This document shows positions 824-31,425 of a stretch of 32,000 nucleotides of DNA, one piece after another. The notes beneath the pieces are model-generated. The model made no database searches. It saw only the letters and a list, made by a program, of their open reading frames with translations, and was not told the DNA's origin. The translations under genes were made by a program, and so were the position numbers. Every line of letters begins with the position of its first letter. Position 1 is the first letter of the stretch. The stretch comes from Candidatus Iainarchaeum sp. (GTDB lineage Archaea; Iainarchaeota; Iainarchaeia; Iainarchaeales; 0-14-0-20-30-16), in contig JAQTTP010000003.1 of NCBI GenBank assembly GCA_028710695.1, positions 69,285-101,284 of the forward strand, in the 5' to 3' direction.

Positions 824-3800
824 ATGGGCTTAAGGGACTTTTATTTTGGTTTAGAAGATAAATACTATAAAATGATCGATAAACTTGATACTATTTTTCC
901 TGCACATGCGATTGTGGATAGAATAGATAAAGTAATGCCTTCAATGATCCTGTTCTTTATTTTATTTGTAGTTATAATTGTTCTAATAATTTGGGCTGTA
1001 ATTCCGTCCTATGCTCAAATAAATGTTTCTTTCTTTAATGATGGCTTGAGTTTGAAGGAAAAAATCCCTTTTAGTATGTATATTGGGGATGAAAACTACT
1101 CCTTTGTTTCTGACGGAGGGTCAGCAATAGTAAAAATACCAAAAAGTGATCTGTATAGAATAAAAGTTGATACTTCTAAGTATTCAATAGACAAAGATTA
1201 CTCTTTTAGTGATGAAATAAAAGTTTTATTAGATAAAAAGAAAAAAAATATTCCAATACAAATTTATTTTAAATCTGGATATTCTGATGTAGAATCCGCA
1301 AGCGCAATATTTGATTGTGATAATATTTCAATACCGGATTCTGAAGCAAGTAAAGAAACAAATAATGGATATATTGAGATAACTGTGCCAGAAGATTGTG
1401 GAATTTTGAATATTTCTGCAAGTGCAGAAGGTTATAATTCTAAGAATGATGTTTGTGATTCAACTTCTTGTGTAATTAATTTTGAAAGTGCTACAAGCGT
1501 TAGTGATAATGGAAAAACAAATATTCCGACTGCAAATATAGTTGTAAAAATTGCAGATAATTTGGGCTCAAAAGATGGACAGGTAACTATTTATGATTCT
1601 TCTGATTTGATAAACCCTGTTGAAACAGGATATTCTTTAAACGGGTATTATAACTCTAAAGCTTTGGCTGTTGGGGGCTATAAAGTTGCTGTTAATGTTG
1701 GAACTTATTTGCCACAAACAAAAACAATAGTTTTGACTGAAGCAGGAATGAATGTTGATTTCATGGTTATGAAAAACACATTAGGAAATGTATTATTAAA
1801 AGTTGATGAAGAAACAGAATTTTCATATAAGTTGAAAGATTTAAATAATAATATATTGGATTCTGGAAATAGTGACAAAGAAGTTGCATTCCTTCCTGTA
1901 TTTGAGTACGGAAAATACCTGATTGATTTGACTCCAGATAGTAATGAATTTGGAGTAATCTCAAATGAGCAAGTTGAATTTAAAGAAGGCACTTCAGAAA
2001 TTACCTTGGATTTGAAAGAGATAACTTCTTTTAACGCTGTTTTAGTTAAATTGCATGTAATTGATGAATCAGAATCTCCAATACAAGGCGCAAAAGCATT
2101 TGTGCAAGATTTGTTTAGCGGATTTGAAGTGTTTAGTTATAACTTCCCAGAAACTGATGAAAATGGAGACACTCAACTTCCCATTACTGAAGAAGGGGCT
2201 TACTCTTTTAGAGTTTACAAAGGTTATTCAGAAGGAATGAGCGAGCAAGTAACAATTACTTTTGAGCCAGGAACTGAAATGCCAGAAGAAGAGTTGGATG
2301 TTGTAATTTATTTGGGAAATGGAAGTTTTAATATAACTGTTTTGGATGAATTAGATTATGTTGTGCCATTTGCACAAATTGATTTTTATACAAAAGGACT
2401 GACAAAAAAATCAGGAACAAAATTAACTGATAATGCTGGAAAATTATTATTTTCATTAAAAGCAGGAACAGAAAAATTCTTTGTGGCATCTAAAGAAGGC
2501 TATATGCCATTCTATAGTGAAGCAAGGTTTTTAACTCCTGCAAATATTTGGGATATAAATGCAAATTTAGAACCACAAAAACTAAAAGAGGATGATGAAA
2601 AAGCAAGAGTTGAATACTTGGGTGTATTTGATGCTCTTGGCGGAGAACCAACTAATTTCGAAGTTGATAAAGCAGTATATTTGGGTTATGATATCCACCT
2701 TTACACTGATGTGGATGAAATGAACTTCGAATATACTACTGGAAAAGAAACAACAACTGTAGAACAAGATTCTTTATTTATTTTTGATAGTAGTTCTTCA
2801 TCACAAGTGGATTCAATGTATGAAGATCTGGAAAAAACAATTTACACTGAGGATAAAGGAAAAATATTAACTGCAAAATGGACTACTGGATTGGATTCTG
2901 CAAAAGTGGAAAAAGGAATTTATAGGATCTATGTGAAAGTAATGGTTAGAAATGATAGCTCAGTATCTTTGTACGAACCATTGAATATAAAATGGAAATT
3001 ATATTTGGATGAAAAGTTAAATTCAAGCGAAGAAAAAGAATATTTCTTAGGAAGTAGTTTGGATTGTAGTGATATGTTTTGTGCAAAAACATCTTTATTG
3101 GACATTGAAAACCAAATCTATGTTGAAAATATTGGAAATGTAAATAAAAATGAACAAAAATATCCTTTAGTAATTGGAAAGAAGTATAAAACTGAATTCA
3201 CCTTAATGAACGGAATAACTGCAAGCGATGGAGAAATTGAAAATGGATACTTGAAAGCACACACAGCAACAAGTTCAGATACAAGTTTCATGGCTGTTGA
3301 AAATGATGTTGATAAATATAATTTCTATCAATTTTCAAATATATCTTTGAGTGGACCAAACAGCGAGAGCCAATATTATGGCGCCGCAAAAACAATTTTA
3401 GTAGATAAATATAATTTCACAAAATTCTTTGCAAATAAAACAATTTCTGGAAGCTTTAATTTAATTCCAACTTATGATAATGGGAATTACATTAACTTTT
3501 GGGTTATAGATTCTGATAAACAAGTTCCAGTAAGGGGGGCTCCAGCATTTAATTATTGGTTTGTGCCTGATGCACCACACTCTCTGAGCATAAAACTATT
3601 CCCTAATACTTTGTTAGTGCCAAATAAAGTTCAGAATTTGAAAGTGTATGTTTATGATGAACTTGAAAGTGTTGTAAAAGACGCAAAAGTAGTTGTATTA
3701 AAGAAAGCACCTAATGACTCAGTATACAAAACTGTGCAAGGTTGTAATAACTTAACAACTGATTATGAGGGCAAAGTAGTTTGTGAACTTCCGCCTTTTG

Positions 3801-6800
3801 AACCTAATACCTTTATACAAGTGTTGGCTTACAAAGAAGGATACAAGAGCTACAAGCATAATGATTTATTGCCTGATTTGAAAGTTGTGGAAGAAATAAT
3901 TTCTTTTAATCCTGCGAAATTGGATATTACAATTTCATATCCTAAAGAAAAAGCAGTGGTTGCAGATTTGACAATTGCAAATGCAAGTGCACAGGATTTA
4001 ATAATAAACAATATTGATTTGCAATTTGATAAATATTCTGAAAATTCTAAATTCCTTTTGAACTGGGAAGCAATGGAAGCTTACTTTGAGTCAGAATATA
4101 AAGGAAAAGTTATTTATGGAATTGAAGAAGATAAAGGAGTAAATGAAACAATTTTGCAAAACTTCTTTAAGGTAATAGCAAATGACACTTTTGATAAGAG
4201 TGTATATGCTGATAAAATTGGCGGAATAATAAAAGTAACTTTGGATACAAGTCCAGGAACTGTAACTTTGGATATTCCTTTTTCAATAAAATTCAAATTA
4301 GATTCTTATCCTGAAAATGCAGGAGAGTGTTTGAAGATTTCAATGCTAGAAAAAGATTTCTATATTGAAAAAGCAACAAACACAGAAATCGAAATGATAA
4401 ATACTTGTTTGTTAGATTCTGAAAAATTAACTCCTGCAATATTTGATAAATTATTTTTGTTGCTAACTTTAGAAGATGGAAGTTATAGTATTGTGAATTA
4501 TAGTTTAACAATACCTGACAAAGTTTCAAAGAATGTTGATATCGGAGTTCCTGCTTTACTTCTTGAAAATCTGAAAACAGATGTAACAAAACCAGATATG
4601 ACTGGGTTCTTGGGAATGACTCCTAAGTCAGTAAAAGGAAACCAAAAAATTGGAATTAAATTAATGGGTTATGTGACAACGGAATCTGGCCCAGCAAAAC
4701 TTGAATCTAATACAATATCAATTAATGTAAATACTGTTGAGTTAGCAAATTGTATTGGGGTTTACAATGACAACGGCGAAAAAATAGACAGAATAGATTT
4801 TGGTGTGTTTAGTAGTATAGAATATTTGGCGACAGCAGAATCAATAAATAATAAAGTTCATGGTCCATCAACAGAAATAGAAATAAAGAACGAATGTTCT
4901 GGATCTTTGTTGTATATAAGAGCATGTAAAGATAATGAAAATAATTTTAGTCCGGGTTGTGGAAATGAAAACAGCGATGCAAAACTTTCATTCTCTGTTG
5001 AAGACTTCACAAAAGGAATTGAATTGGCTGGTGGCGCAAGCCAAAAAGTAGAGATTTATAGGCCATCAATACCTGGTGCATATGCTTTAGATCTGTGGGT
5101 AAAAACAAAAGACCAATGGGGCTATAAAAAGATTTATGATGTTAAAACAAATGTAAAAACAACAACCGCATTTGGATACTTTAGTTATAATCCATTCTTG
5201 CCTATGTTTGATCTGAATACTGATATTACTCCTATGACAAATGGAGACGAATTTGAGTCAGATATAATGTACCTGTTCAATAGAGATTTATGGGTTTCAA
5301 AGATGAGTGATTTAGAGACTCTAGAAAAAATAGCAGAATGTGATACTGGCGGCTCTGGATGTTGGAATTCTTTAGATAGATTAGATCTGAGCTCTGGACT
5401 TGGTGACGATGGAGATAGTGTAGACAATTCAGAAACTGCGAGAAAAGCAGTATTCTATAGTGGAGTGGGAGTTGCAGGTGTTGGAGTTATTATTTTGATT
5501 GGTGTTGCTCTGTGTGCATCTTCTGTGCCAGTAGCCGGTTGGATTATTGGTGGTGCCGCGGCCATTGCTGCAGGGACATTTGCAATAATTTCTGCATTGG
5601 CTCCGGATGACTTTGAACAAATAACAGAATATCACTTGTTTGATATGGTTGGGGAAGATATTGCTCTTGATGCTGTGATTTATAGTCAAACTGATAAGAA
5701 AACTTATAATTGGCTGGATGGTACTTCAATGGATCCCGTAAAGTTGACGAGCTTGTTTGGAGAGCGGTATTATGATCTGTATTATGTTAATAAAGAAGTT
5801 GCTGGGTCTGTAGGATTTGCAGGCGGAGACCACAAGAAAGATTTGTGGTTTACTGTGTATTGTGGAACTGAATATGAGCCAGTTGTAGATGCAATTGTAA
5901 TAAACGACATAAAAAAAGAAGTTTGTGGCTGGCCTGAAGATGAACCTTTTGTTGTGAATGGTTCTGATGTTGAATTTAGACCAGATTGTTCTGATGCAGG
6001 ATTCTTGGACGGATTTGAACTACATTCACATGTTTATGTTCCTTGTGTTCTAAAACCAAAGAACTGGGTATATGAACAATTCAAAGGTGTAGATTATGGT
6101 TTGCCAAATACTGGTTTGGCAAGAGTAAAATATACTACAAAAGATTTGAAGCCAGGATATAATTACTTTGATGTTGATATGAATGTTATTGGGCTTTTGG
6201 ATATAGATCCAAAAGAAGTAAAGTTTAGAGTTTCTTTGTACAACCCTTTATCTGAAGAAGAAAAAATTCTTCCTCTTGGAGACTCTTGTAAGAATCTAAG
6301 TGGAGAGATTATTGGTTATACTGGTGAAAAAGCAAGGCCAAAACTAAAGTTTGTATGGGATTGGCAATCACAGGGGTCTGTTTTGAGCCCATATGAAGAT
6401 ATGAACTTTTGTAATACAGATAACTATTGTGACTCAACTCAATTCATGATGAATATGTTCAATAGAATAAATACATTTAATGATGAAATTTTGGATTTGA
6501 GTAAGAGCAATGATATGGATTTGCCGAAAACAAATCCTCAACCAGAAACACTTAAACCAGAGTATGACTACGATCCTGCAAAAGCAGAATCTCTTGGAGT
6601 TAAGTCTGTAAAACTAGAATTTACTAATTCAAACCTTTTGTATTTGAAAGTATCAAAAGATGTTGATGTAAATGTAAGTAAAATAAGTGTAATAGTTGGT
6701 GGGGCAGATGGGTCTTCTGGAGATATGGCTGTATCTTCTCAAAATCCAAATGTGTTTACTTATACCATATCTGATCAACCAGTTGAAGAATACAAAGATT

Positions 6801-8062
6801 TAGATGGAAAGAAGTATTCAATCATTTTGAAAATATATTCCGGAAATGAATCCGGGTTGTTGCCTGTGAATGTAACGTTAACATATATTCCAGAAGTACC
6901 TGCAAAGCCAATAAACGTACCTTTGTCAACAGAAATAATGGATGGTGCAATGGCTTTATCTAAATGGTTCTGGGATACTAATATGAACTTAGATGATGCT
7001 ACATCTGACACTTTGTTTGATGCACAAAAGAAGATATATTTCTTGGCAAACATAATGAAAGATGGATTTACAGAAGACTTCTTTAATGACTTTGTAAATT
7101 CATGTAATAGTGAATTCTTTGTGTGTCCAAGTGAAGTAAAAGATAGTTTTATGGCTCTTATGGAAGAAGGGCGTTTGAAAGTAGTTAATGTAGATGGCAC
7201 AAACAAATTAAATGGCCCCGGAAAGTATGTTGTAAGAACTATAATTGATTATAAGAATACAGACCTAGAAATTAAAGATGCAAATATAATAATAATTTTA
7301 GAGAAAGTTGAGCCACCAATACAAGATAATATTTTGTATTATATGCCTCTGGATGGTCCTATTGGAATAAGTGATTATAGTGTTGATAGACAAGGCTATG
7401 GTGTTGACTTCTCTGGAGCAACAATTGACCTTTTTAAGCTTGGAAATTTAGCAAAGAAATTGACAGTAAACACAACATCTAATCCAATAAATACTGTGAA
7501 TGTAGAATCAAATTATGATTTTGCTTCTGCTAACAAAATTGCAAGAGGCAGAGTTTTAGGAATAAATACTTTGGGCGACCAACAAGTGTTTGTGAACTTT
7601 GTTCCAATGAATCAAACAAAGTTTAACTTTGAACTAACTCCAGAAACAGATAAAGATACAAAATTCTGTTATGAAGTAGAACTTGATGACCAGATAATGA
7701 AAGGTCCAGATTCCTTGCTGCCGTTCTTTGCAAAAGATCCTGAAGCAAAAGATTTCACAGGACAAATGATGGTAGATAACTACCCTAAATTTGCAGAGGC
7801 AGGAGTTTGTGGAGATCAAGCTGGATTGAAGTATAGCTTAGAATCAGTAATGAGTTCTGATCCAATAGGTCTTTACACTTATGTGTATGCTTTGAATAAC
7901 ACAAATGTAAAAGTGACCAATAGTAGTTATGACAATACAGAAAGTTTGTCTGGAAAAACATTAAGTAGTGTATTTGATGATATTGCTGCAGGAAGGCTGT
8001 GTATAAATTCCACAAGCCAGACAATGGATGTATTTTGGAATGAATATGCTCAACAAAATTAA
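824..8062 (+). CDS. Giant membrane-anchored surface protein 1 (2412 aa), family unknown
   Basis: Single uninterrupted 7.2-kb ORF. N-terminal ~40 aa are hydrophilic, then a hydrophobic helix (MILFFILFVVIIVLIIWAVI). It has repeated segments with the carboxypeptidase-regulatory-like pattern, e.g. KLHVIDESESPIQGAKAFVQD...TDENGDTQLPITEEGAYSFRVYKGY. There are many N-x-S/T sequons and an internal Gly/Ala-rich double hydrophobic segment at aa ~1542-1593. The Cys-containing C-terminal region is colinear with the next gene. Confidence 0.9.
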   Translation: MGLRDFYFGLEDKYYKMIDKLDTIFPAHAIVDRIDKVMPSMILFFILFVVIIVLIIWAVIPSYAQINVSFFNDGLSLKEKIPFSMYIGDENYSFVSDGGSAIVKIPKSDLYRIKVDTSKYSIDKDYSFSDEIKVLLDKKKKNIPIQIYFKSGYSDVESASAIFDCDNISIPDSEASKETNNGYIEITVPEDCGILNISASAEGYNSKNDVCDSTSCVINFESATSVSDNGKTNIPTANIVVKIADNLGSKDGQVTIYDSSDLINPVETGYSLNGYYNSKALAVGGYKVAVNVGTYLPQTKTIVLTEAGMNVDFMVMKNTLGNVLLKVDEETEFSYKLKDLNNNILDSGNSDKEVAFLPVFEYGKYLIDLTPDSNEFGVISNEQVEFKEGTSEITLDLKEITSFNAVLVKLHVIDESESPIQGAKAFVQDLFSGFEVFSYNFPETDENGDTQLPITEEGAYSFRVYKGYSEGMSEQVTITFEPGTEMPEEELDVVIYLGNGSFNITVLDELDYVVPFAQIDFYTKGLTKKSGTKLTDNAGKLLFSLKAGTEKFFVASKEGYMPFYSEARFLTPANIWDINANLEPQKLKEDDEKARVEYLGVFDALGGEPTNFEVDKAVYLGYDIHLYTDVDEMNFEYTTGKETTTVEQDSLFIFDSSSSSQVDSMYEDLEKTIYTEDKGKILTAKWTTGLDSAKVEKGIYRIYVKVMVRNDSSVSLYEPLNIKWKLYLDEKLNSSEEKEYFLGSSLDCSDMFCAKTSLLDIENQIYVENIGNVNKNEQKYPLVIGKKYKTEFTLMNGITASDGEIENGYLKAHTATSSDTSFMAVENDVDKYNFYQFSNISLSGPNSESQYYGAAKTILVDKYNFTKFFANKTISGSFNLIPTYDNGNYINFWVIDSDKQVPVRGAPAFNYWFVPDAPHSLSIKLFPNTLLVPNKVQNLKVYVYDELESVVKDAKVVVLKKAPNDSVYKTVQGCNNLTTDYEGKVVCELPPFEPNTFIQVLAYKEGYKSYKHNDLLPDLKVVEEIISFNPAKLDITISYPKEKAVVADLTIANASAQDLIINNIDLQFDKYSENSKFLLNWEAMEAYFESEYKGKVIYGIEEDKGVNETILQNFFKVIANDTFDKSVYADKIGGIIKVTLDTSPGTVTLDIPFSIKFKLDSYPENAGECLKISMLEKDFYIEKATNTEIEMINTCLLDSEKLTPAIFDKLFLLLTLEDGSYSIVNYSLTIPDKVSKNVDIGVPALLLENLKTDVTKPDMTGFLGMTPKSVKGNQKIGIKLMGYVTTESGPAKLESNTISINVNTVELANCIGVYNDNGEKIDRIDFGVFSSIEYLATAESINNKVHGPSTEIEIKNECSGSLLYIRACKDNENNFSPGCGNENSDAKLSFSVEDFTKGIELAGGASQKVEIYRPSIPGAYALDLWVKTKDQWGYKKIYDVKTNVKTTTAFGYFSYNPFLPMFDLNTDITPMTNGDEFESDIMYLFNRDLWVSKMSDLETLEKIAECDTGGSGCWNSLDRLDLSSGLGDDGDSVDNSETARKAVFYSGVGVAGVGVIILIGVALCASSVPVAGWIIGGAAAIAAGTFAIISALAPDDFEQITEYHLFDMVGEDIALDAVIYSQTDKKTYNWLDGTSMDPVKLTSLFGERYYDLYYVNKEVAGSVGFAGGDHKKDLWFTVYCGTEYEPVVDAIVINDIKKEVCGWPEDEPFVVNGSDVEFRPDCSDAGFLDGFELHSHVYVPCVLKPKNWVYEQFKGVDYGLPNTGLARVKYTTKDLKPGYNYFDVDMNVIGLLDIDPKEVKFRVSLYNPLSEEEKILPLGDSCKNLSGEIIGYTGEKARPKLKFVWDWQSQGSVLSPYEDMNFCNTDNYCDSTQFMMNMFNRINTFNDEILDLSKSNDMDLPKTNPQPETLKPEYDYDPAKAESLGVKSVKLEFTNSNLLYLKVSKDVDVNVSKISVIVGGADGSSGDMAVSSQNPNVFTYTISDQPVEEYKDLDGKKYSIILKIYSGNESGLLPVNVTLTYIPEVPAKPINVPLSTEIMDGAMALSKWFWDTNMNLDDATSDTLFDAQKKIYFLANIMKDGFTEDFFNDFVNSCNSEFFVCPSEVKDSFMALMEEGRLKVVNVDGTNKLNGPGKYVVRTIIDYKNTDLEIKDANIIIILEKVEPPIQDNILYYMPLDGPIGISDYSVDRQGYGVDFSGATIDLFKLGNLAKKLTVNTTSNPINTVNVESNYDFASANKIARGRVLGINTLGDQQVFVNFVPMNQTKFNFELTPETDKDTKFCYEVELDDQIMKGPDSLLPFFAKDPEAKDFTGQMMVDNYPKFAEAGVCGDQAGLKYSLESVMSSDPIGLYTYVYALNNTNVKVTNSSYDNTESLSGKTLSSVFDDIAAGRLCINSTSQTMDVFWNEYAQQN

Positions 8063-8183
8063 TAAAAAAGTAAGTAGGTAAAGAACAGCATTAGTTAGGT
8101 TAAAAAAATGCTAAAAAAAGGTCAACGGTTAGTACAGAAAGGAGACAAAAAACACCTCTTAAGATGGTGTACAAAATTTGGCT

Positions 8184-8213
8184 CCTATAAGAATTATAAT
8201 TATTGGTGATTGT
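8184..8213 (+). promoter_or_regulatory. Promoter / 5' region of giant gene 2
   Basis: cctataagaattataattattggtgattgtATG parallels cctataattatatatata...ggtgtttttATG upstream of gene 1. Confidence 0.45.
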
Positions 8214-11200
8214 ATGAGTTTTAGAGAGCTATATACGAAAATAGAAGATAAATATTATGCGATGTTGGATAAGATAAATCAAGTTATACCTATCCACAAG
8301 CTTACTGACCAAATTGACAAGGTAATGCCCTCGATGATATTCTTTTCTGTATTCTTTTTAGTGATAATTGGACTTATTATTTGGCTAATAGTTGCTAGTG
8401 TTGGATCTTCAACAATCACTTTTGAATTTTATTCTAATGGAACACTTGCATCCGGAGAATTTAATGTAACTTTCTCTTCCGAAGGTGGAGAACAAATTGC
8501 TCTTGTGAAGAATGGAATTGCCTTTGGAAATTATGATATGGGGGATTTTGTAACTGTGAAAATAAAAGAGCCTTATACTTTTTCAAAAACTTATGAAATT
8601 AAAAGCGAATTAATGAAAATTGACTTGCCAGGATTAGACAAACTTGCTTTGAAGGAAGCAGAAAAAAAGAATAAAGAAATTTCTATTTATTTGTATGATG
8701 GCACATCTGGGTCTCTAGTTAAAGAAAAAGCGATTGTTAGCGCAAGTTGTGAGGATTTTAGTAAAGAAATAGAAGTAACTGGAAACACAAAACTTGCAAT
8801 TCCTGATAATTGTTCTTATGTTGATTTGTTAGCAACTGCTGACGGATATTTACAATCTAAAAAAAGTTGTGATACCGCTTTGTGTAAAATATTTATGGAC
8901 AAAAAAGGAACAACTACTCCAACAACTGTTGTTCAATCAATTCCAAAAAATAAAGTTGTTGTGTATGTAAAAGATAATAAAGGAACTTCTCTGGAAGGGT
9001 TTGATGTAAAAATTACTGGGGTTGAATCAATACAAGATGTTTTGAACCAAGCAAAAACAAATGCTTTTGGAAGTTACACTTTTGAAGATATTACTGTTGG
9101 AAATTATAAATTGTATGTGTCTGATCCTTCTGGAACTTTGACTACTGTAAGCAAAGATTTAATTGTTGTATCTGGGCCTCCAGTTATTGCAGATATTACT
9201 ATGGAAAAGCCGCCTTTGGGATATTTTAATGTAAAAGTGAATACTGAGAATACAGGTGGATTTGCATTAGCTACTTTGTATGTGAAAGATGTAAATGATA
9301 ATTATCTTGGAACTGTGGACATAAATACTGGTGTAGAATACAAGATAGGTGTTTATGAAAAAGGAAAATATATTTTTAATGTAATTCCTGTAACTGGTTA
9401 TGATGAAAATTATTCAATTGTTACTGAAGAAAGAGAATACGATTTGCAAAGCGGAGATAAAAAAGTTGATTTAGTTTTGAAAGAATTAAAATATTATGAA
9501 AATACAAAAGTTAATTTGAAAGTTGTAAAAGAAAAAGATGATGGGTCTGAGGAACCATTGCCAAATATGAAAATAATAGTTGAAAATGACGAAGGCTGGC
9601 AAATAGAATTGCCTGCTGACAAAACAAAAACAGATGTAAATGGTTCTGTGAGTTTTATTTTGCCATCTGGAGTTTACATAGTTCATGCTTATAATTATTA
9701 TTTTACTGGAGAAACAAATTTACAATTATTGGACACTCCTGGTGCAACAGAATTGCCTGAAACAGATGCAAAGATTGCTGTTCAGATTGGAAAAGCAAAA
9801 ATAAAAGTTTCTGTTAAAGACGAAGATGGAAAGGATTTGACAGATGTGAAAGTAGATATCTATATGGATTCCAATTTTTTTGGACCAATGTTTATAAGTC
9901 AAGAAAAATACAAAGAGGTTCAGGTTGAGGCATATCATAGTTATTATGTAAAGGTAACAAAAGAAGGATATTTGAATTATTATAGTCCAGAGTTGGTTTT
10001 GAAGAAAGACCAATTAATGGATGAGAAAGTAATTTTGTATAATAAATTAGAACACTTAAACTCAGATCCTGAAATGATTTATGTTGGGGCATATAAAGAT
10101 CAAGAATTAAAAACAAAGCTTGATAAAATAGATCAAGAGAATGAGTTTTATTATGTGTTTGATTTAGTTGTTCCAGAATTTAGTGAAAAATTGTATGAAA
10201 TTTCTGGGGTTAAAGTAACTGGTGTTGCAGGAAACAAAAATTTGCCAGTTTTAGAAAGCGATTTAGTTTTAAAGAACGTATTTGCGTCTGGAAAAACACA
10301 TTTATTTAGTACAATAACTGGAACTTCTTTAGCAGAACAAGGTGAAGATTTTACTTATACTGCAAAATCTTTTACAAGCGAGTTTAATGGGGGCTCTTAT
10401 GTTGCAAGAATGGTTGTGCATTTGAGATCTACTGATATTCCTCAAATAGGGGATAAATTATTCTTTTATTATAAATTAGATATAGATACTAAACAAAATG
10501 GCTCTTTTAATTTGCCAATACCAACTGACGCAGAATATTATGAATTAATTAAGTTCTTGGGAAAACGAGAACTTTGTGAAAATGAAGTTGTTTGTGTTGA
10601 TACTTACTTAGATGGAATGGCAACAAGTAGTTTGCCTGGCGGAAGCGAAAATAAAGTGGAATTATATTCTGGAAAGCAGAATAATATTCTTGTAAATCTT
10701 ACAAAGGGTGATGAACTTCCAACTGAACTTGAAGCAAGTAAGTTTACAGTATTCAATTCTACAATTTCTTCTGTAGAGAACTTTAATTCTTTGAAAGACT
10801 TCTATGTTGATTTGGAAGATATGAGTTTAGTGCACGACAAAATAACATCTACAAAGCCAATAGAAATTGACTCACAAACAGCACCGGTATTTGTAAAAGA
10901 AGCATCAATAAATAATTATAAAATTAATACTACTTTGAAGTTTGATTCAAAAATTGAATTGGTGGAACCAGAGAATTCAAAACTTTATTTTAATTTTGAT
11001 ACTACTAATGAAGTTGAGCAAGTATATGTTGATTTAGAAACAATGAACGATGACGAACCATTAAAGTTAGAAGGGCTGCCAGAAGGAGATCTTTTGATTC
11101 CTGGAATTGAAAACTCTTTTGATGTAATTGTGAAATCTGGAGAAGATAAGATTGGGGCTGCAATAATAAAAATATATTTCTTTGATGGAATGAATTGGTC

Positions 11201-14200
11201 TTTAGAAAATACTTTTACTGCAGGAAATGATGGTGTTGCAAAAATTACTATAAAGCCACACACACAAGGTGAAGAAGTAAAAATATCTGCTGAAAAAGAA
11301 AGTTATTTGCCTTGTGCAAAGATTTTATTAGTAAGTACTGATTTGTTTGAAATAAACAAAAGCAAGAATGAAACAAAAATAGTTTATCCAAAAGATTTAA
11401 ATCCAGTTGCAGGAAAATTGGGAATAAAAAACAAAACAAATATTGATTTTGAAGTTTATAATGTGGAATTTGTGGGTTCTTCAAATTTGGGTTTATTGAT
11501 GAATGTAGAAAAAATGGAAAACTACCTTAAAGATGCAAAACCATTGTTAATTCCAAATGAAGAAACAATAGGATTTAAAATGCATTATAATGATTTGCCA
11601 GTACAAACTTTGACAGATTCAGTTGCTCTTGATGATGTTCATGCAATGTTATCTGTTAGGCCAAAAGGATCAGAAAGTGAAATTGTTTTGGATGTTCCAA
11701 TAACTTTGGAAATAACTTTTAATAATCAGCCTTTGGAAGAGAATTGTGTTTCTGTTGAATTTACAAAAGATTTAAGTAAACTATCTGGGGAAACAGAGTT
11801 TAGTGCTGTATTCCTGAACGGTGTTGCGCCAGAAACTTATTTGATAATAGAAAACTCTTGTACAATTGAATTGAACGAAGGCCAAGGAAGTGTTGCGGAT
11901 TATGAATTTGCTGACTTTTTGTTAGATGCGTCATTTTCTAAGATGGCAAATAATATAATGGGCGGATTCACAATTAATATTGAAGGTGCAAGTGATAATA
12001 CAAAAACAGAAAATTATTCTTTGTTTAAAGTTGATACTGGCGAAGTAATAAAATTGCTTTCTCCAAAGAAAAAGAGCAATGACAAATATATTTACAAAAT
12101 CACATTTGAAAAACTTGGAGATTATGAATTTGGAAAGAACGGAACAAATGTAGAATTTAAATTTATTCCAAAGTACCAAGGTGTTGGAAACCAAACGATC
12201 TCTTTTGGAGAGAAGAAACTTTCAATGAACGTTTCTGAAAAGAAGATATCTGATTGCTTATATTTCGGGTTGAATACAAATGTTAATACCCAATCTGTTG
12301 CTACCGACACTGAAGGAGTGGCTACTGAAGAAGGTTCTGAACAGCAAGTTATTATGCCAATTAGTATAGACGAACAACAATATTATTTGAAAGGTGGAAA
12401 TGGAATATTAAGATTGGGTTATGATTATGTTGATGAGACTGTGGGCCCAGAATCTTTGAATGCGAATTTGACTTTGGATAACACAAGTAACTTGCAAATA
12501 ACTAGGCCAGGTAATGATTATGTTGTAAACTCCCTGCCGCTTTTAATTAAGAACACTTGTGGAATTGATTTGGAAATAAAATTGTGTAAAGAAGATGATG
12601 AATATTGTAGAATTCCTGATGTAGGATTTATGCAATTTGATACTTTATATGGTGTTGAAGGATTTGAGTTATATAATACTCCTTTAACTATTGGTGCGGA
12701 TAAAGAAATACAATTCTCCTTATTGAGGCCGCAGGAATTCTCCGGTGCTGTTGTACTTCCTTTGTATGTAAAAAACACAACAGGAGAATATGGCTTGGCA
12801 AAAGAAGCAAAGGTATCAGTTCAATCTTCATTGTTTAATCCATACTTTGTGTTAAATCCATTTGTTGAAGATGGAAACATGGACATTACTTTCTACAAGA
12901 ATGAATATTATCCAGATATGACTGGTTGGTCAGATCCAATAGAGAAACAGTTATTGACCAACGACACAGATTCAAGCTCATATCTGCGATTGATCCAAAT
13001 AACTCCTGGTCCAATTTTTAATTATGATGGGGACGATGATTCTGGAAATATTTTAGATTCTTTTGAAGCACTGAACCCAAAGTCAATTGACTATACGGAT
13101 GATAGTTCTGATGTTGACCAAAGTCTTAGTGAAAAAGTTGTTGGGGTTGTAGGCGGTATGATTAGTGGCGGCGTAGATATATTGTACTATATAAAAGAAG
13201 TAGAATATAATCTTCCACAATGGGCTATAATAAAAATAATGGCAAATAGATTCCATAAAGGGTCTTTGAGTGATTTAGATGATGATGTGGCCGCAACAGC
13301 AGAATATAGAATTTGGTCAGAAAGCTTGCCAATACAAAATATATTAAATAATAAACAGATTTTTGACGGTTTTAATAATGATTGGTGTGAGCTTGAAGAT
13401 GATTCTTGCTTCTTTAATTATGAAGGCCCAGTTCAAAAAATTGCAGATATTTTGCGTGAAACTGTCGGAACAAAGTACCCTTATTTTACATCAATAAGTG
13501 TTGCAAGGTTGGAAGGAGATTGTGGTTGGTCAAATGTTATTGCCTATGCACAAGGGTTTTGTCCACAGGGGTATGAACTTGCAAAAATAGAACTTTTTAG
13601 AAAAGATGGCGGAACTGTTGATGGCAGAGATAATACTTTCTCTCAAGTTACTGAAGGCAAGACAACAAAATACTTATATGGTGGCTCTGTAAACTTTGAA
13701 GATAAATATATTAATGAAGAGTCAGATACTGGCTATCAGATGATGACTATTTGTAGGCTTCCTAGATCAGAGTTTGGAGAAGTAGATCGTGCTGTTGGGG
13801 GAACAATGAAATATAGTTCTTTTGGCAGTGGGTCAATATTTGATTCCTCAGGAATAGAAAATATTGTAAAAAGTAAGATCCAAGCAACAGACATATTTAA
13901 TTGCACGGACTGCACTTCTGAATTGAGAGAATTTTTATTTGATGTATATGATGCAGAGGCAGCAGATATGGATTGTGAAATAACACCGCCAGGTTATTTT
14001 GATGCGGGTGATAATGATGAATATGAGATATACCAGAATAATTCATCTGGATGCCCCGGATTTGACTACTCAAAAATAAACTTATTAAATGAGTTATACC
14101 AAGGCAAGGAAAATGATGTAGACAATTATAAGGCAAGGACTGCGGCAGTAGTAACTAGTATAGTAACAAACTCAGGGAAAACGACATCTGGAGAACTTGC

Positions 14201-15590
14201 TTATGCAGCAAATATGGCTTTTGCAGGTAGTGATACTTTCTTTGGTTATATTGATGATGCATATGGTATTAATTTTGATGGGCTAATAATAGAACTTTGT
14301 AAAGATGGTTCAAAGACAAAAAATAATGGTACTTGTAGTCATGCAACTCAATTACGTGCTAGCTTTGGACCGTATAATTATAATTCCATCTCTATAACTG
14401 CTGCTGAATTTGATGGCTTAAATTCAAACATAAGACTATATCTTGAGCCAAAGACAATGAAGAAAGACTTTGCATTCTATAAGAAAGTAAATTCATGCCC
14501 ATATGGTGGGTATACTGGCCCAGAAGTAAAGCCAACAATAAATTATACTTGGGCAGAAAGTGCAATAAAAAAAGATTTCTGTGTTGTTGAGGGTGAAGAG
14601 AATTATGCAGATGTAAATGCTTGTGATTTAGTTCAATTCTCTAAAGTGATTTCAAAACAATTTTCAGATGATATGGAACAAAAGCATTTTACTGTAAAAC
14701 TGATGTATGACAACTATTCTGAAAGTGCAATAAATTCTTTAATAGAATGGTCTTTCTTTGAACACATAAAAGATTTAAGAATCCTGAATTATGATGGAAG
14801 CCCGGTGGGAGAAATTGGGCCTGGAATTTACAATGTAGATTTAATACGTGATGAAAATGTATTGGATGTGTACTTATCATATCTGACAAGTTATGGGCCA
14901 GATCATATATTCTATAGGATGCCTGTAGACAATGTTGGTACTGGGGCAATCCCTGGAATTGGAACTTCAATGAACTATCCAATAAATTATGATGGCTTTG
15001 GAAGCTTTAGTCAGATTAAAGATGACGTTTCTACCTTAAAAGAATATTCTGTTTCAAACCACGATTTGAAAACAATAAATACAACTCAAAAAGGAACTGT
15101 GTTTGCAGGATACTTTAATGATGGCTTGATATATTGGAATAACATGGATGTATATCTGCTGACTGCACACTTGGGAACTGACGAGAATAAAGAAATTTTG
15201 CTAACTGCTCCAGAATATGATACGGAAATCTATGAAGTTCTAAAATCTGGCTGGATTTATGAAGATGGTGAAGACTACTACTATGCTGAAAATGCGGGAT
15301 TTGGGTTTGGAGTGGTTGACACAGATAATGGCAAGAAGTTAAAGATAAGTAATGCAAGCGGATACAATAGAACTGTAAAGAAAATATTATTCTATCCACA
15401 AGGAAGCGCGTTGGATTTGCCAGAACAGGATGATGTAACTCTTACACAGCTTGATGTTGAGCCAATATACAGTATAACAGACATATTCAAAGGATTGGAA
15501 AATGAAAACATTTGTTATAGGGCTTTGGAAGACGGAAGTGAATATTATTATAACCCTTTGAAATTATTAGATATAATACAAACGCAATAA
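8214..15590 (+). CDS. Giant membrane-anchored surface protein 2 (about 2458 aa from ATG 8214), paralog of 824..8062
   Basis: The ORF track starts at TTG 8178. ATG 8214 gives MSFRELYTKIEDKYYAMLDKINQVIPIHKLTDQIDKVMPSMIFF..., which aligns residue-for-residue with the N-terminus of gene 1. It has the same TM anchor, beta-sandwich modules (e.g. KIKVSVKDEDGKDLTDVKVDIY...VKVTKEGYLNYY) and a colinear C-terminal module. Confidence 0.9.
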   Translation: MSFRELYTKIEDKYYAMLDKINQVIPIHKLTDQIDKVMPSMIFFSVFFLVIIGLIIWLIVASVGSSTITFEFYSNGTLASGEFNVTFSSEGGEQIALVKNGIAFGNYDMGDFVTVKIKEPYTFSKTYEIKSELMKIDLPGLDKLALKEAEKKNKEISIYLYDGTSGSLVKEKAIVSASCEDFSKEIEVTGNTKLAIPDNCSYVDLLATADGYLQSKKSCDTALCKIFMDKKGTTTPTTVVQSIPKNKVVVYVKDNKGTSLEGFDVKITGVESIQDVLNQAKTNAFGSYTFEDITVGNYKLYVSDPSGTLTTVSKDLIVVSGPPVIADITMEKPPLGYFNVKVNTENTGGFALATLYVKDVNDNYLGTVDINTGVEYKIGVYEKGKYIFNVIPVTGYDENYSIVTEEREYDLQSGDKKVDLVLKELKYYENTKVNLKVVKEKDDGSEEPLPNMKIIVENDEGWQIELPADKTKTDVNGSVSFILPSGVYIVHAYNYYFTGETNLQLLDTPGATELPETDAKIAVQIGKAKIKVSVKDEDGKDLTDVKVDIYMDSNFFGPMFISQEKYKEVQVEAYHSYYVKVTKEGYLNYYSPELVLKKDQLMDEKVILYNKLEHLNSDPEMIYVGAYKDQELKTKLDKIDQENEFYYVFDLVVPEFSEKLYEISGVKVTGVAGNKNLPVLESDLVLKNVFASGKTHLFSTITGTSLAEQGEDFTYTAKSFTSEFNGGSYVARMVVHLRSTDIPQIGDKLFFYYKLDIDTKQNGSFNLPIPTDAEYYELIKFLGKRELCENEVVCVDTYLDGMATSSLPGGSENKVELYSGKQNNILVNLTKGDELPTELEASKFTVFNSTISSVENFNSLKDFYVDLEDMSLVHDKITSTKPIEIDSQTAPVFVKEASINNYKINTTLKFDSKIELVEPENSKLYFNFDTTNEVEQVYVDLETMNDDEPLKLEGLPEGDLLIPGIENSFDVIVKSGEDKIGAAIIKIYFFDGMNWSLENTFTAGNDGVAKITIKPHTQGEEVKISAEKESYLPCAKILLVSTDLFEINKSKNETKIVYPKDLNPVAGKLGIKNKTNIDFEVYNVEFVGSSNLGLLMNVEKMENYLKDAKPLLIPNEETIGFKMHYNDLPVQTLTDSVALDDVHAMLSVRPKGSESEIVLDVPITLEITFNNQPLEENCVSVEFTKDLSKLSGETEFSAVFLNGVAPETYLIIENSCTIELNEGQGSVADYEFADFLLDASFSKMANNIMGGFTINIEGASDNTKTENYSLFKVDTGEVIKLLSPKKKSNDKYIYKITFEKLGDYEFGKNGTNVEFKFIPKYQGVGNQTISFGEKKLSMNVSEKKISDCLYFGLNTNVNTQSVATDTEGVATEEGSEQQVIMPISIDEQQYYLKGGNGILRLGYDYVDETVGPESLNANLTLDNTSNLQITRPGNDYVVNSLPLLIKNTCGIDLEIKLCKEDDEYCRIPDVGFMQFDTLYGVEGFELYNTPLTIGADKEIQFSLLRPQEFSGAVVLPLYVKNTTGEYGLAKEAKVSVQSSLFNPYFVLNPFVEDGNMDITFYKNEYYPDMTGWSDPIEKQLLTNDTDSSSYLRLIQITPGPIFNYDGDDDSGNILDSFEALNPKSIDYTDDSSDVDQSLSEKVVGVVGGMISGGVDILYYIKEVEYNLPQWAIIKIMANRFHKGSLSDLDDDVAATAEYRIWSESLPIQNILNNKQIFDGFNNDWCELEDDSCFFNYEGPVQKIADILRETVGTKYPYFTSISVARLEGDCGWSNVIAYAQGFCPQGYELAKIELFRKDGGTVDGRDNTFSQVTEGKTTKYLYGGSVNFEDKYINEESDTGYQMMTICRLPRSEFGEVDRAVGGTMKYSSFGSGSIFDSSGIENIVKSKIQATDIFNCTDCTSELREFLFDVYDAEAADMDCEITPPGYFDAGDNDEYEIYQNNSSGCPGFDYSKINLLNELYQGKENDVDNYKARTAAVVTSIVTNSGKTTSGELAYAANMAFAGSDTFFGYIDDAYGINFDGLIIELCKDGSKTKNNGTCSHATQLRASFGPYNYNSISITAAEFDGLNSNIRLYLEPKTMKKDFAFYKKVNSCPYGGYTGPEVKPTINYTWAESAIKKDFCVVEGEENYADVNACDLVQFSKVISKQFSDDMEQKHFTVKLMYDNYSESAINSLIEWSFFEHIKDLRILNYDGSPVGEIGPGIYNVDLIRDENVLDVYLSYLTSYGPDHIFYRMPVDNVGTGAIPGIGTSMNYPINYDGFGSFSQIKDDVSTLKEYSVSNHDLKTINTTQKGTVFAGYFNDGLIYWNNMDVYLLTAHLGTDENKEILLTAPEYDTEIYEVLKSGWIYEDGEDYYYAENAGFGFGVVDTDNGKKLKISNASGYNRTVKKILFYPQGSALDLPEQDDVTLTQLDVEPIYSITDIFKGLENENICYRALEDGSEYYYNPLKLLDIIQTQ

Positions 15591-15623: not shown

Positions 15624-16043
15624 ATGGATATAACAATGTTGATAGGGCTAGGAGAGTTCTTTGGGGACTTTGTCTTCATAATAAAGATCTTTGCCTTTAT
15701 TGCCATTCTTGGGTTTGTTAACAGATATATCCAGAGCAAGTTAATAAAAATAATAATGGTCGTGTTTATGGGTTATTTTATCCTTATTGCAAACTGGGCT
15801 GTATTTGGAACTATGTTTGTGATATATACTTTATTGGGAATTGGTGTTGCAGGAATACTAACAGATTTCTTCTTTGCTGGTCAGAATATTATTGGTGAAG
15901 GTGAACAAGAAAGGCAGATGGCCCAAGAAAAAGAGCGGGAAGAAATGGAGAGAAGAAGAATGCTTGAGGATGCACGGCCAGTATCTAGTAGTGCGAGTTT
16001 GCATAAAAGGCCCCCAATTCCACCTGCACTTATGAGAAGGTAG
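15624..16043 (+). CDS. Small polytopic membrane protein with charged/Pro-rich C-terminal tail (139 aa)
   Basis: Starts 33 nt after the giant gene 2 stop. It has 3-4 hydrophobic helices, then GEGEQERQMAQEKEREEMERRRMLEDA...KRPPIPPALMRR. Confidence 0.75.
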   Translation: MDITMLIGLGEFFGDFVFIIKIFAFIAILGFVNRYIQSKLIKIIMVVFMGYFILIANWAVFGTMFVIYTLLGIGVAGILTDFFFAGQNIIGEGEQERQMAQEKEREEMERRRMLEDARPVSSSASLHKRPPIPPALMRR

Positions 16044-16047
16044 AACT

Positions 16048-16407
16048 ATGGCGATTAAATTAAATGAAAAGGGTGCAATAATAATTGCAATTGGCATTGC
16101 GTTTGTAGTAATAATACTGCTGCCAATTGTGTTTATGCAAATCTTTTCAATTTCAAAGCCTCTATTTCAGATTATAATTGCCTTTGTTATAATGGGGTAT
16201 ATACGAAATGTTGGAATAGAAGGAATACCATTTTGGACTTTGTCTGCTATTCTAATATACTTTTTAGCTTGGAAATATGTTGAGATTGCTTCAAGCTTTT
16301 ATGTTTTGATGTTATTAATGGGTTTAGGATTTACTTCATCTTTGATCTGGGGTTCAATATTCTTTACTGGGCTTTTGAAAAATAGAAAAATGGCGAAGCA
16401 AGGATAA
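16048..16407 (+). CDS. Small 4-TM membrane protein (119 aa)
   Basis: 4-nt gap after the previous gene. Four hydrophobic segments and a short basic C-terminus (KNRKMAKQG). Confidence 0.75.
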   Translation: MAIKLNEKGAIIIAIGIAFVVIILLPIVFMQIFSISKPLFQIIIAFVIMGYIRNVGIEGIPFWTLSAILIYFLAWKYVEIASSFYVLMLLMGLGFTSSLIWGSIFFTGLLKNRKMAKQG

Positions 16408-16441
16408 CTATAAAAACAAAATTGTGTTATATAGTGATAAT

Positions 16442-16687
16442 ATGAATTGGATTCTGTTAGTTGCTGATGTAGGAACATTTAAAGGGGATGTATGGTTAGC
16501 CCTGTTCCTTTACGTAAGTATAATGGTTTTTGCATGGGCAAAAGGAAAGCTTGGAAGCCCAGAAGTAGCTATTTTGTATACAATCATAATGATGTTTTTG
16601 GTGTTTTATCAGCACGATGTTCTAATTTGGCTTGCCTTGGGACTATACCTTTACCAGACCTATGGTAAGGAGATATTCAAGGGCTGA
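16442..16687 (+). CDS. Small 3-TM membrane protein (81 aa from ATG; track uses GTG 16424)
   Basis: The ORF is almost entirely hydrophobic (VWLALFLYVSIMVFAWA, VAILYTIIMMFLVFY, VLIWLALGLYLY). ATG 16442 is preferred over GTG 16424 but the choice is unresolved. Confidence 0.65.
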   Translation: MNWILLVADVGTFKGDVWLALFLYVSIMVFAWAKGKLGSPEVAILYTIIMMFLVFYQHDVLIWLALGLYLYQTYGKEIFKG

Positions 16688-16692
16688 TCTGA

Positions 16693-17031
16693 ATGGAAAT
16701 TTTCTCCTTTATAATCTCGATGTTTGTAATGATGGTTGCATCGCAATATGGGTTATATTGGCTTATGATAATAGTTGCGGGTGTTGCTGCTTTCATGTCT
16801 AAGGAGAAGAAAGTACTGATAATTTTTGTGATTTATATTGCAATCCTGTATTTCATAAAGGGCACTGCCTATGAATCTTATGGAATTTATGTTGCTGCAG
16901 TAATCATTGTGGTTTATTTAATCTTGAATAAAGGGGATTCTGGTGGTGAAGAAGAAGCACTGGGCGGAATGGGAGATCAATATGGTGATCTTCTGAAGGG
17001 CCTTGGCGGCGGTGGCGGCGGGGGAATGTAA
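16693..17031 (+). CDS. Small 4-TM membrane protein with acidic/poly-Gly tail (112 aa)
   Basis: 5-nt gap after the previous gene. Four hydrophobic segments, then DSGGEEEALGGMGDQYGDLLKGLGGGGGGGM, encoded by a locally GC-rich tract. Confidence 0.75.
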   Translation: MEIFSFIISMFVMMVASQYGLYWLMIIVAGVAAFMSKEKKVLIIFVIYIAILYFIKGTAYESYGIYVAAVIIVVYLILNKGDSGGEEEALGGMGDQYGDLLKGLGGGGGGGM

Positions 17032-17075
17032 ATTCCTGAAGGAATTGTGAAGGAAAACCCCCCAAAAAGACCAAG

Positions 17076-17138
17076 AAACCTTTATAAAGCTATGTTATAT
17101 TGATTATATATATTATATATAGAGCGATGTGAAGTATC
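17076..17138 (+). promoter_or_regulatory. Promoter region of the 17139 gene
   Basis: aaacctttataaa (17076-17088) is identical to the 13-mer upstream of ftsZ (23761-23773). It is followed by a (TA)n tract and gagcgat, mirroring tatatatacagcgat upstream of giant gene 1. Confidence 0.5.
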
Positions 17139-17483
17139 ATGAAGTTATTAATTGCTTTGTTATTAGGAATATTGGTATTTGGATTGATGAACAACTCATC
17201 CCTGTTAAGTATAGGTCTAATTTTGTTAGGAGTTTACCTATTGTTTAACATAGTACAGGGTGCAAAGAGCAATGCAAGTACTTTGAAGAAGTTTGTTGAT
17301 GTTAAGGAAATTAACTTCGACAATCTAAAATGCCCTGAGGGTATTGTGGACAATATGTTGAAGGATGCCGGAAAAGTTACAAAGAATATGCTTAACGGAA
17401 ACAAGACTGAAAACATAGGAAAGGCATTGCATAACGGAACTTATAATGCTTTACAAGACGTTGGTGCTCCTTTCAAGAACTAG
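17139..17483 (+). CDS. Small membrane protein, two N-terminal TM helices plus ~70-aa soluble domain (114 aa)
   Basis: MKLLIALLLGILVFGLMNNSSLLSIGLILLGVYLLFNIV, then a hydrophilic Lys/Asn-rich domain. It has its own promoter and is followed by T-runs. Confidence 0.7.
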   Translation: MKLLIALLLGILVFGLMNNSSLLSIGLILLGVYLLFNIVQGAKSNASTLKKFVDVKEINFDNLKCPEGIVDNMLKDAGKVTKNMLNGNKTENIGKALHNGTYNALQDVGAPFKN

Positions 17484-22199: not shown

Positions 22200-22271
22200 T
22201 GCCCCGGCCGGGAATTGAACCCGGGTCGAAAGAGTGAGAGTCTTTCGTGATAGCCACTACACTACCGGGGC
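22200..22271 (-). tRNA. tRNA-Glu (anticodon CUC)
   Basis: Hand-folded cloverleaf: acceptor GCCCCGG/CCGGGGC, anticodon stem AAAGA/TCTTT, loop CT-CTC-AC, T-arm CCGGG-TTCAATT-CCCGG, discriminator A. No encoded CCA. Confidence 0.93.
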
Positions 22272-22272
22272 A

Positions 22273-22345
22273 CTAGCCTTTTAATAAAGGCTAAGTTTGC
22301 CAAAATTGGGTCCATCTTCGCGGCTAGCCGCTCGATAACCCTTAC
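22273..22345 (-). ncRNA. Conserved ~72-nt structured module, copy 1, abutting the tRNA-Glu 5' end (strand uncertain)
   Basis: Aligns block-for-block with 22917-22988. It contains the hairpin AGCCTTT-ATTA-AAAGGCT and a compound stem GGGTTATC...GATGGACCC enclosing the GCGG-CTAG-CCGC hairpin. Confidence 0.5.
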
Positions 22346-22367
22346 TTACTTTTTTGGAGAGCTTACC

Positions 22368-22398
22368 GTTTTCTTTCTTTTATGAACTTAAGCTCTTC
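22368..22398. repeat. 31-nt intergenic repeat, copy 1
   Basis: gttttctttcttttatgaacttaagctcttc is identical to 23260-23290. Confidence 0.9.
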
Positions 22399-22460
22399 CA
22401 AGAATCTTTTTTGCAAAGCAAAAAAATTCAGGGGCTAAAGCAGTTTGTGAAACAAACTGG

Positions 22461-22500
22461 CTTTTTCTTTTCTTTTTTGAAAAGAAAGAAAAACTTAGAG
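22461..22500 (-). terminator. Palindromic T-rich terminator 3' of tRNA-Leu
   Basis: ctttttcttttcttttttgaaaagaaagaaaaacttagag. On the minus strand the tRNA is followed by CTCTAAG-TTTTTCTTTCTTTTC. The same design occurs at 23073-23107 and 23291-23320. Confidence 0.7.
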
Positions 22501-22814: not shown

Positions 22815-22842
22815 TATTCTAAATAATCTTAAAAAATAGAAG

Positions 22843-31416: not shown

Positions 31417-31425
31417 TTGATCTTT

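Follow-up and report, generated by a model that had tools for sequence, protein, structure and literature searches.

A mid-chain hydrophobic element, probably a membrane hairpin, in a family of giant surface proteins of Iainarchaeota

We report that GP1, a 2,412-residue protein encoded in a 32,000-nucleotide stretch of Candidatus Iainarchaeum sp. DNA (GenBank assembly GCA_028710695.1, contig JAQTTP010000003.1, positions 69,285 to 101,284; hereafter the window), carries in mid-chain a Gly/Ala-rich hydrophobic element that is probably a membrane-embedded helical hairpin, spanning or re-entrant, that provides a second but dispensable attachment to the cell's own membrane. GP1 (824-8062, plus strand) was recognized from its open reading frame (ORF) and from profile searches as an N-terminally anchored giant surface protein of the Iainarchaeota giant family. 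Together with GP2 (8214-15590, plus strand), a colinear paralogue of 2,458 residues from the ATG at 8214 that aligns with GP1, it occupies nucleotides 824-15590 in two co-directional giant ORFs. Judged by their sequences, both proteins are members of a large undescribed family whose chains measure ~2,200-2,900 residues.

A long uncharged segment divides GP1 into two lobes

Nucleotides 5447-5602 encode GP1 residues 1542-1593, which translate to AVFYSGVGVAGVGVIILIGVALCASSVPVAGWIIGGAAAIAAGTFAIISALA, an uncharged stretch rich in Gly, Ala, Val and Ile (13 Ala, 9 Gly, 8 Val and 8 Ile, with 11 small-xxx-small motifs in 52 residues). The segment is preceded by the acidic flank GLGDDGDSVDNSETARK (5396-5446; this and the following features all lie on the plus strand) and followed by PDDFEQ. 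It is laid out as two uncharged hydrophobic stretches around a short turn (24 + 7 + 21 residues): arm 1, AVFYSGVGVAGVGVIILIGVALCA (24 residues, 5447-5518); the turn SSVPVAG (5519-5539), which with the next Trp makes up a P-x-x-G-W motif also seen in distant relatives; and arm 2, WIIGGAAAIAAGTFAIISALA (21 residues, 5540-5602), in which PVAGWII.G.AAA is kept by the orthologue P0004. The acidic C-flank PDDFEQITEYHLF (5603-5641) is the positional counterpart of a DDPC...DYVINL motif found in other clades. An earlier reading of this DNA, made from the letters alone (the sequence-only reading), had singled out the segment and its acidic lead-in, and both were located exactly; its estimate that the segment is long enough for two membrane spans or one re-entrant hairpin agrees with the arm lengths and with the 53 consecutive residues that lack D, E, K and R.

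This hydrophobic run lies far beyond chance expectation. The 53-residue stretch is the longest of its kind in GP1 and was reached by none of 2,000 shuffles of the protein, and the mean hydropathy of 1.95 over 52 residues was reached by none of 5,000. The 19-residue Kyte-Doolittle (KD) maximum of 2.53, which singles out the segment as the sole such segment of GP1 besides the N-terminal anchor, is less extreme (matched by 56 of 2,000 shuffles). The N-terminal anchor is a signal-anchor helix, MPSMILFFILFVVIIVLIIWAVI (residues 38-60, 935-1003), that was recognized by hydropathy and lies behind a conserved cytoplasmic peptide, EDKYY...IDKVMPS. On a simple position-independent Hessa-type sum, all figures of which are rough, the summed insertion energy is -0.55 for arm 1 and +0.48 for arm 2 versus -7.6 for the N-terminal anchor; by this measure the GP1 arms would be marginal membrane helices.

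The segment leaves a lobe of 1,471 residues after the N-terminal anchor and one of 819 residues behind it, much as the sequence-only reading had estimated (~1,480 and ~820). The two lobes are alike in their density of sequons (N-x-S/T; 11.6 versus 12.2 per 1,000 residues), and both have even Cys counts (16 and 12). Pfam searches of GP1 and GP2 matched only CarboxypepD_reg/Ig-like domains (Ig, immunoglobulin), all in the N-terminal lobe (the stalk), and gave no match in the C-terminal lobes (C-lobes). The C-lobe of GP1 contains a conserved, Cys-containing C-terminal module (residues ~1820-2412, 6281-8059) with a confident predicted fold and without a known family or a solved relative. An hmmscan of nucleotides 5300-5750 against Pfam, at expect values (E) up to 1, returned only PrgI at a chance-level E of 0.37, and no chain was matched in a sequence profile search of the PDB at E up to 1.

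The element occupies a fixed junction in a widespread family

When single sequences served as queries in word-based searches, the hairpin region retrieved just 2 proteins and the C-lobe just 4, and a full-length profile gave 33 matches, ~15 of them true family members; an exhaustive search by profile yielded 830 clusters (50% identity), of which 544 have E <= 1e-30. Of 61 related genomes from the same order, 53 contain relatives of the GP1 junction and C-lobe; almost all of these relatives are ORFs of 2,200-2,900 residues, and they often come as tandem pairs. The genomes with relatives are those of Candidatus Iainarchaeum/Diapherotrites, including Ca. Iainarchaeum andersonii and archaeon GW2011_AR10. 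GP1 aligns with its relatives end to end, from the N-terminal EDKYY...DPIDKxVPSF peptide and anchor through the C-terminal module, which is marked by the motifs YCDxTQF, MKDGF/YxxDF and PxDGxVG...RQGYG. The N-terminal hydrophobic anchor is present in 62 of 62 giants from related genomes and in 93 of 97 full-length representatives.

We classed an element as strong at a KD value of at least 2.0 and scored three samples: 62 full-length giants from related genomes, 90 after adding further related loci found with an 8-sequence alignment, and 97 independent representatives at 50% identity. A strong element was found in 25 of the 62 and 35 of the 90 giants, and the 97 representatives divide into 35 with a strong element, 34 with a weak one and 28 with none. 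Alignment of homologues, proposed earlier as a check, therefore reveals a variably present segment and not a constant transmembrane (TM) hairpin. The position of the element is nevertheless fixed: it lies at relative position 0.63, in the linker between two Ig-like domains, after a conserved domain end (VxVxAxxCxWxxA) and before the start of the next domain (DYVINL; EYHLF in GP1).

Strong elements have a median uncharged run of 44-47 residues and a turn without basic residues, and their flanks are acidic (mean net charge -1.3 for the N-flank and -3.3 for the C-flank, the latter often with DDPC). The P-x-x-G-W turn motif recurs across clades (VPVAGW in GP1; IPVAGW, GPVGW, VPVIGW and GPAGW elsewhere). 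The arms of this class attain KD values of up to 3.5, with rough summed insertion energies that reach -6.4, and hydrophobicity is maintained while the sequence drifts freely. The weak class, about a third of the representatives, consists of glycine-zipper arms (KD 1.4-1.9) that are often split by long inserts. These inserts contain 10 sequons per 1,000 residues versus 11 and 10 in the lobes, and their Cys counts are nearly all even and range up to 72.

The junction that harbours the element (GP1 residues 1474-1800) is the least conserved and most indel-prone stretch of the protein. This feature, along with low AlphaFold2 confidence at the same place, would suit a processing site: a hairpin destabilised by Gly, Pro and Ser could be cut by an intramembrane or juxtamembrane protease, which would separate the stalk from the C-terminal module and leave each with one anchor, and Gly/Pro/Ser-rich TM helices are typical substrates of intramembrane proteases. 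Yet there is no protease gene linked to the locus within the window, the turn aside we found no conserved cleavage motif, and members without the element would need a different biogenesis. We judge such processing to be highly improbable.

Several sequence features of individual clades may be recorded here. In one subclade (L093, L094, L097, L105, L115, L121 and L122; alignment A6, columns ~345-360) a CxxC motif, mostly W/F-C-P-P-C, stands exactly at the turn and the start of arm 2, where GP1 has P-V-A-G-W. In the beta-sandwich after the hairpin, the motif EH[IV]HGDxxH is near-invariant throughout the strong paralogue clade (L093:6700-6760; alignment A6, columns ~505-520) and could possibly be a metal-binding site near the membrane; GP1 and its orthologue are without it and have KKEVCGWPED. 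Before the N-terminal anchor, most members carry the conserved cytoplasmic peptide (consensus EDKYY..LD..D..IP.YK..DPIDKxVPSF; 824-934 and 8214-8330 in the window), which looks like a docking motif for a cytoplasmic partner and is missing in several hairpin-bearing members. Clear family members also occur on two contigs, L131 (NZCP01000006.1) and L161 (JAFCBY010000066.1), deposited as Candidatus Woesebacteria and Candidatus Falkowbacteria; these names from the bacterial candidate phyla radiation are probably binning errors.

The element has decayed in GP2 and been lost repeatedly

At the corresponding junction of GP2, arm 1 is represented by VVGVVGGMISGGVDILYYI (13137-13193), with a KD maximum of 1.65 and a rough summed insertion energy of ~+5.4, which is too polar for a membrane span, as the sequence-only reading had held. 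The turn and arm 2 are represented by KEVEYNLPQWAIIKIMANRFHKGS (13194-13265), identified by alignment and now charged and amphipathic. GP2 aligns with GP1 and P0004 through the junction and keeps the acidic lead-in DSSDVDQS, the weakened arm 1, P-Q-W at the turn position (P-x-W), a charged arm 2 (WAIIKIMANRFHKGS) and a downstream DD....EY.IW motif. In its orthologue from the sister genome (45% identical), arm 1 is deleted, and P-N-W and the downstream motif are kept. Because the flanking motifs are aligned and retained in both GP2 and this orthologue, GP2 is a decayed copy and not a misalignment. By its insertion energy, the GP2 remnant is not a membrane helix. The GP1 orthologue P0004 (55% identical overall) has a lengthened, 75-residue Ala/Thr-rich hairpin in which only PVAGWII.G.AAA is conserved.

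A tree built from the C-terminal module places these differences in a wider pattern. Strong elements predominate in one order-wide paralogue clade, whose linker is compact (254-310 residues), and the family-level clade of GP1 is strong throughout. In a second order-wide clade all members are weak or have no element: a short Gly-rich arm (e.g. GLKWGLVGGVLGLL) follows the domain end, and a second arm comes 80-670 residues later. Within the strong clade several lineages independently turned weak or split, and GP2 and one upstream paralogue sit on long branches. By these alignments and this tree, the hairpin appears as an old but dispensable family feature that was repeatedly weakened, split or lost. 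The earlier proposal that GP2 has lost a second anchor fits these data, since a hairpin stands at the homologous junction in GP1's clade and in the order-wide paralogue clade, GP2 retains remnants, and the GP2 orthologue is without arm 1.

Two further features of GP2 emerged from these alignments. Its start is most likely the ATG at 8214, which gives MSFRELY... (compare MGLRDFY... in GP1), and not the TTG at 8178. A patch of its C-lobe (13900-14500, residues ~1900-2100) is hypervariable and indel-rich, with only 7-9% identity to the sister-genome orthologue versus 45% overall; the orthologue is 231 residues shorter.

Predicted folds do not bury the segment

Prediction of the local fold was another check proposed by the sequence-only reading. 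An AlphaFold2 model of GP1 residues 1340-2412 from a 49-sequence alignment has a mean predicted local distance difference test score (pLDDT) of 70, and the preceding Ig-like domain and the C-terminal module (~1820-2412) are confident (pLDDT 80-97). For L093, a relative from the strong clade, a better-aligned 440-residue fragment gave two confident beta-sandwiches (predicted template modelling score, pTM, 0.71); in this model arm 1 is of low confidence, and arm 2 forms an 18-residue helix (pLDDT 58-83) that continues directly into the second sandwich. In both models the segment stays outside any soluble core, and neither proves a helical hairpin in GP1. Foldseek searches with both models retrieved only generic Ig-like, PapD, ASH and FN3 sandwiches. 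A likeness to a TcdA1 receptor-binding-type sandwich (Foldseek E ~0.02, 117-133 columns) was dismissed as generic beta-sandwich similarity.

The coil conformation that AlphaFold2 assigns to the GP1 segment, at very low confidence, would also be expected if the segment stayed outside the bilayer, either as a Gly-rich packing or oligomerisation element (between giants, or with five small membrane proteins encoded nearby, at the membrane surface) or as a flexible, elastin-like linker. This alternative, which we consider unlikely, draws on the GVGVAGVGV-type repeats and small-xxx-small motifs of the segment, on the weak glycine-zipper variants, which alone are not TM-competent, and on the tandem arrangement of giants in twos or fours, which a cassette for small membrane proteins usually accompanies. 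On the other hand, a 53-residue uncharged run would be hard to keep soluble beside a strongly charged ectodomain, the strong homologues are of classic TM grade, and the interfacial Trp and acidic flanks are membrane-type features. Moreover, packing against the small membrane proteins would place the segment in the membrane, in which case this alternative merges with a membrane-embedded hairpin.

Topology and likely role of the element

The side on which the C-lobe lies constrains how the element can relate to the membrane. The N-terminal peptide and anchor imply that the stalk is outside the cell. Whether members have two arms, weak arms or none, their C-lobes are homologous and share invariant Cys, and should therefore lie on the same, outer side in all of them; it follows that the element crosses the membrane either not at all or twice. 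The like sequon densities and even Cys counts of the two GP1 lobes, and the acidic flanks on both sides of the element, agree with this placement. A single-span topology with a cytoplasmic C-lobe, similar to that of the SPEARE proteins discussed below, was rejected since members without a hydrophobic element share the C-lobe.

On this basis we favour a model in which the cytoplasmic peptide and signal anchor at the start of GP1 put both large lobes outside the cell, and two helices rich in Gly and Ala, 24 and 21 residues long, lie inside the membrane with SSVPVAG-W as a tight turn between them. The hairpin would sit in the linker where the 1,470-residue stalk, after its last Ig-like domain, gives way to the conserved C-terminal lobe of 820 residues, and would dip from the outside into the cell's own membrane and back out, as a full span or a re-entrant loop. 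Attachment in mid-chain would keep the C-terminal module at the membrane surface and turn the stalk into an arch. Lineages would then have repeatedly weakened the element to glycine-zipper arms, split it by extracellular-looking inserts or dropped it, with GP2 as one decayed copy. We infer the helical conformation in GP1, the insertion into the cell's own membrane and the anchoring role from the sequence of the segment, its conserved position and the properties of its homologues. Given the very hydrophobic arms of many of these homologues and the lateral release of such segments by the Sec translocon, anchoring in the own membrane should be the default. Two full spans would fit GP1 and most strong members, and either mode, spanning or re-entrant, would tie the junction to the membrane from outside.

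Several observations weigh against this model. The GP1 arms are marginal in insertion energy, as described above, and GP1 residues 1458-1649, which include the hairpin, are modelled mostly as coil and not as helices (pLDDT 24-36). In some relatives the uncharged run measures just 20-37 residues, which would not suffice for two full spans. Around 60% of the family is without a strong hairpin, and anchoring by it is therefore not essential. Finally, the inter-arm inserts of split members look extracellular, being net acidic and without enrichment of Lys or Arg beside the arms; in these members at least, ectodomain-like inserts make a re-entrant or peripheral mode more likely than full spanning, and the variants with 20-37 residues would likewise be better accommodated by such a mode.

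The marginal arms of GP1 may possibly leave room for escape from the translocon and later insertion elsewhere, which touches on the more speculative proposal of the sequence-only reading, namely that these segments act like fusion peptides or insertion loops aimed at the membrane of another cell. Accordingly, the arms would be a deployable insertion element, comparable to a fusion peptide or a toxin hairpin, that is spared the own membrane and driven into that of a host or neighbour, with the stalk bridging two cells. The support for this idea is compositional: the Gly/Ala-rich make-up resembles that of viral fusion peptides. Small-genome DPANN archaea are thought to depend on other cells. In addition, the GP1 arms, being only marginally hydrophobic, might escape stop-transfer, the extracellular look of the inserts in split relatives is compatible with it, and large membrane-anchored proteins of a Diapherotrite have been proposed to function in cell-cell interaction (PMC5905446). 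The very hydrophobic arms of the homologues speak against it, as stop-transfer rules lead one to expect their release by Sec into the own membrane. Furthermore, no heptad or coiled-coil refolding module and no amphipathic helical bundle is predicted beside the segment, whose neighbours are beta-sandwiches; the element is freely lost, including in GP2; and searches by PDB sequence profile, Pfam and Foldseek gave no match to toxin or fusogen families. We therefore judge it quite improbable that the arms act on a foreign membrane. The same low likelihood attaches to a conditional device in which GP1-type arms would be kept at the surface and would insert into a partner cell's membrane, the stalk and C-terminal module would form a bridge or the start of a conduit to the host, and GP2-type paralogues would serve as non-inserting partners. 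If it were true that the hairpin enters another cell's membrane, it would offer a molecular handle on the attachment of ultrasmall archaea to partner cells.

Two other possibilities were considered and rejected. A beta-hairpin pore stem, suggested by the alternation in GVGVAGVGV, was discarded because only ~10 residues alternate before the uniformly hydrophobic IILIGVAL. Lipidation at the Cys after the hairpin (DDPC in many relatives) was discarded because D and P before Cys are not lipobox-like and GP1 is without this Cys.

Comparison with known systems

The element, taken as a membrane hairpin, is of a known general kind in a new context, namely mid-chain, with Ig-like neighbours, in an undescribed and widespread family of giants, and evolutionarily labile. 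The closest likeness is to glycine-zipper-type membrane hairpins (PF05433, PF13488 and PF13441), with which it would share two short Gly/Ala-rich helices, many small-xxx-small motifs, a tight turn and both ends on the same side. However, the GP1 region has no match to the hidden Markov models of these Pfam families, and its hairpin, unlike those of small lipoproteins or stand-alone domains, is flanked by Ig-like domains midway along a protein of 2,400 residues. Viral class I fusion peptides and toxin hairpins of the colicin/Bcl-2 type are similarly Gly/Ala-rich and moderately hydrophobic, and can enter bilayers. Unlike fusion peptides, the GP1 segment is not at an N-terminus generated by cleavage and has neither a heptad-repeat coiled coil nor a class II/III beta-domain fold predicted nearby as a refolding module, and unlike the colicin/Bcl-2 type hairpins it is flanked in our models by a disordered linker and beta-sandwiches, with no shielding bundle of amphipathic helices. 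It also differs from PGF-CTERM/archaeosortase sorting signals, whose hydrophobic helix lies at the extreme C-terminus between a signature motif and a basic tail, as it is internal (819 residues follow) and is succeeded by an acidic flank. In S-layers of the SlaA/SlaB type, large envelope proteins are encoded in tandem and a membrane-anchored partner holds the outer assembly. The near-universal presence of the giant family in the order would suit such a structural envelope role, but GP1 and GP2 each have an N-terminal anchor of their own, and nothing in Sla proteins corresponds to the mid-chain hairpin.

Among DPANN archaea, the SPEARE giants of Nanohaloarchaeota combine serine protease, laminin-G adhesion, cytoplasmic type III restriction-enzyme and toxin-like domains, and a single TM segment near one end divides the outside part from the cytoplasmic restriction-enzyme domain (PMC6642349). 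They resemble GP1 as giant, mostly extracytoplasmic proteins with adhesion-type domains and an internal membrane segment. In contrast, GP1 combines an N-terminal anchor with a two-arm element and, by our model, keeps both lobes outside, and Pfam detects none of the SPEARE domains in it. Our literature searches on giant proteins of DPANN archaea and Iainarchaeota returned no description of the family or of the hairpin. The giants are uncharacterised, and the sole probable mention in print that we found is one sentence by Probst and Banfield (2018, PMC5905446) on large membrane-anchored proteins of the Diapherotrite Ca. Forterrea multitransposorum; these belong to the same phylum and, compared by description only, fit the tandem giant arrays seen here, but that paper gives no family definition and does not mention an internal hydrophobic hairpin.

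Iainarchaeota/Diapherotrites are uncultivated DPANN archaea that spend 2-5% of their ~1 Mb genomes on tandem giant envelope proteins. The hairpin would constrain the architecture of these proteins, with both lobes outside and an orphan C-terminal module at the membrane surface, and it provides a natural construct boundary for expression and structural work. Its weakening, splitting and loss over 830 clusters would amount to a natural experiment on a dispensable membrane anchor.

The giant locus and other features of the window

GP1 and GP2 are part of a larger array, as the contig of the window (C19) carries four tandem giants of ~2,400-2,600 residues each. The two further paralogues lie in tandem upstream of GP1 (C19:52328-67966, ending ~1.3 kb before position 1 of the window) and measure 2,576 and 2,609 residues from stop to stop; one is without the hydrophobic element and the other has split glycine-zipper arms. 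The four-giant locus spans ~30 kb, more than 3% of the 0.9-Mb assembly (27 contigs).

Directly behind GP2 lies a cassette for five small polytopic membrane proteins (15624-17483, plus strand), whose synteny is kept in the sister genome and which possibly encodes membrane partners of the giants. Such cassettes recur after the last giant: at least three ORFs of this type follow 20 of 33 related giants. In many genomes, gene coordinates and tree classes place a weak-type giant immediately 5' of a strong-type one, and a recurrent arrangement has a giant with weak or split arms, followed by one with a compact hairpin and finally by the cassette (e.g. G030:C34, G029:C5, G035:C9, G022:C1 and G050:C1). 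Gene order differs in the family of the GP1 genome, where the hairpin-bearing GP1 is followed by the decayed GP2 and then by the cassette.

The window as a whole has ~33% G+C; it carries the archaeal signal recognition particle (SRP) RNA and six tRNAs, and its genes include those for FtsZ, FEN1/XPG, a Hef-type helicase-nuclease and RpiA. Five of the tRNA genes and the SRP RNA, on mixed strands, cluster at 22200-23585, the G+C-richest part of the window (40%). A tRNA gene (31059-31131, minus strand) is overlapped by a listed 135-residue ORF with a TTG start (31030-31437, minus strand), which is probably spurious or shorter.

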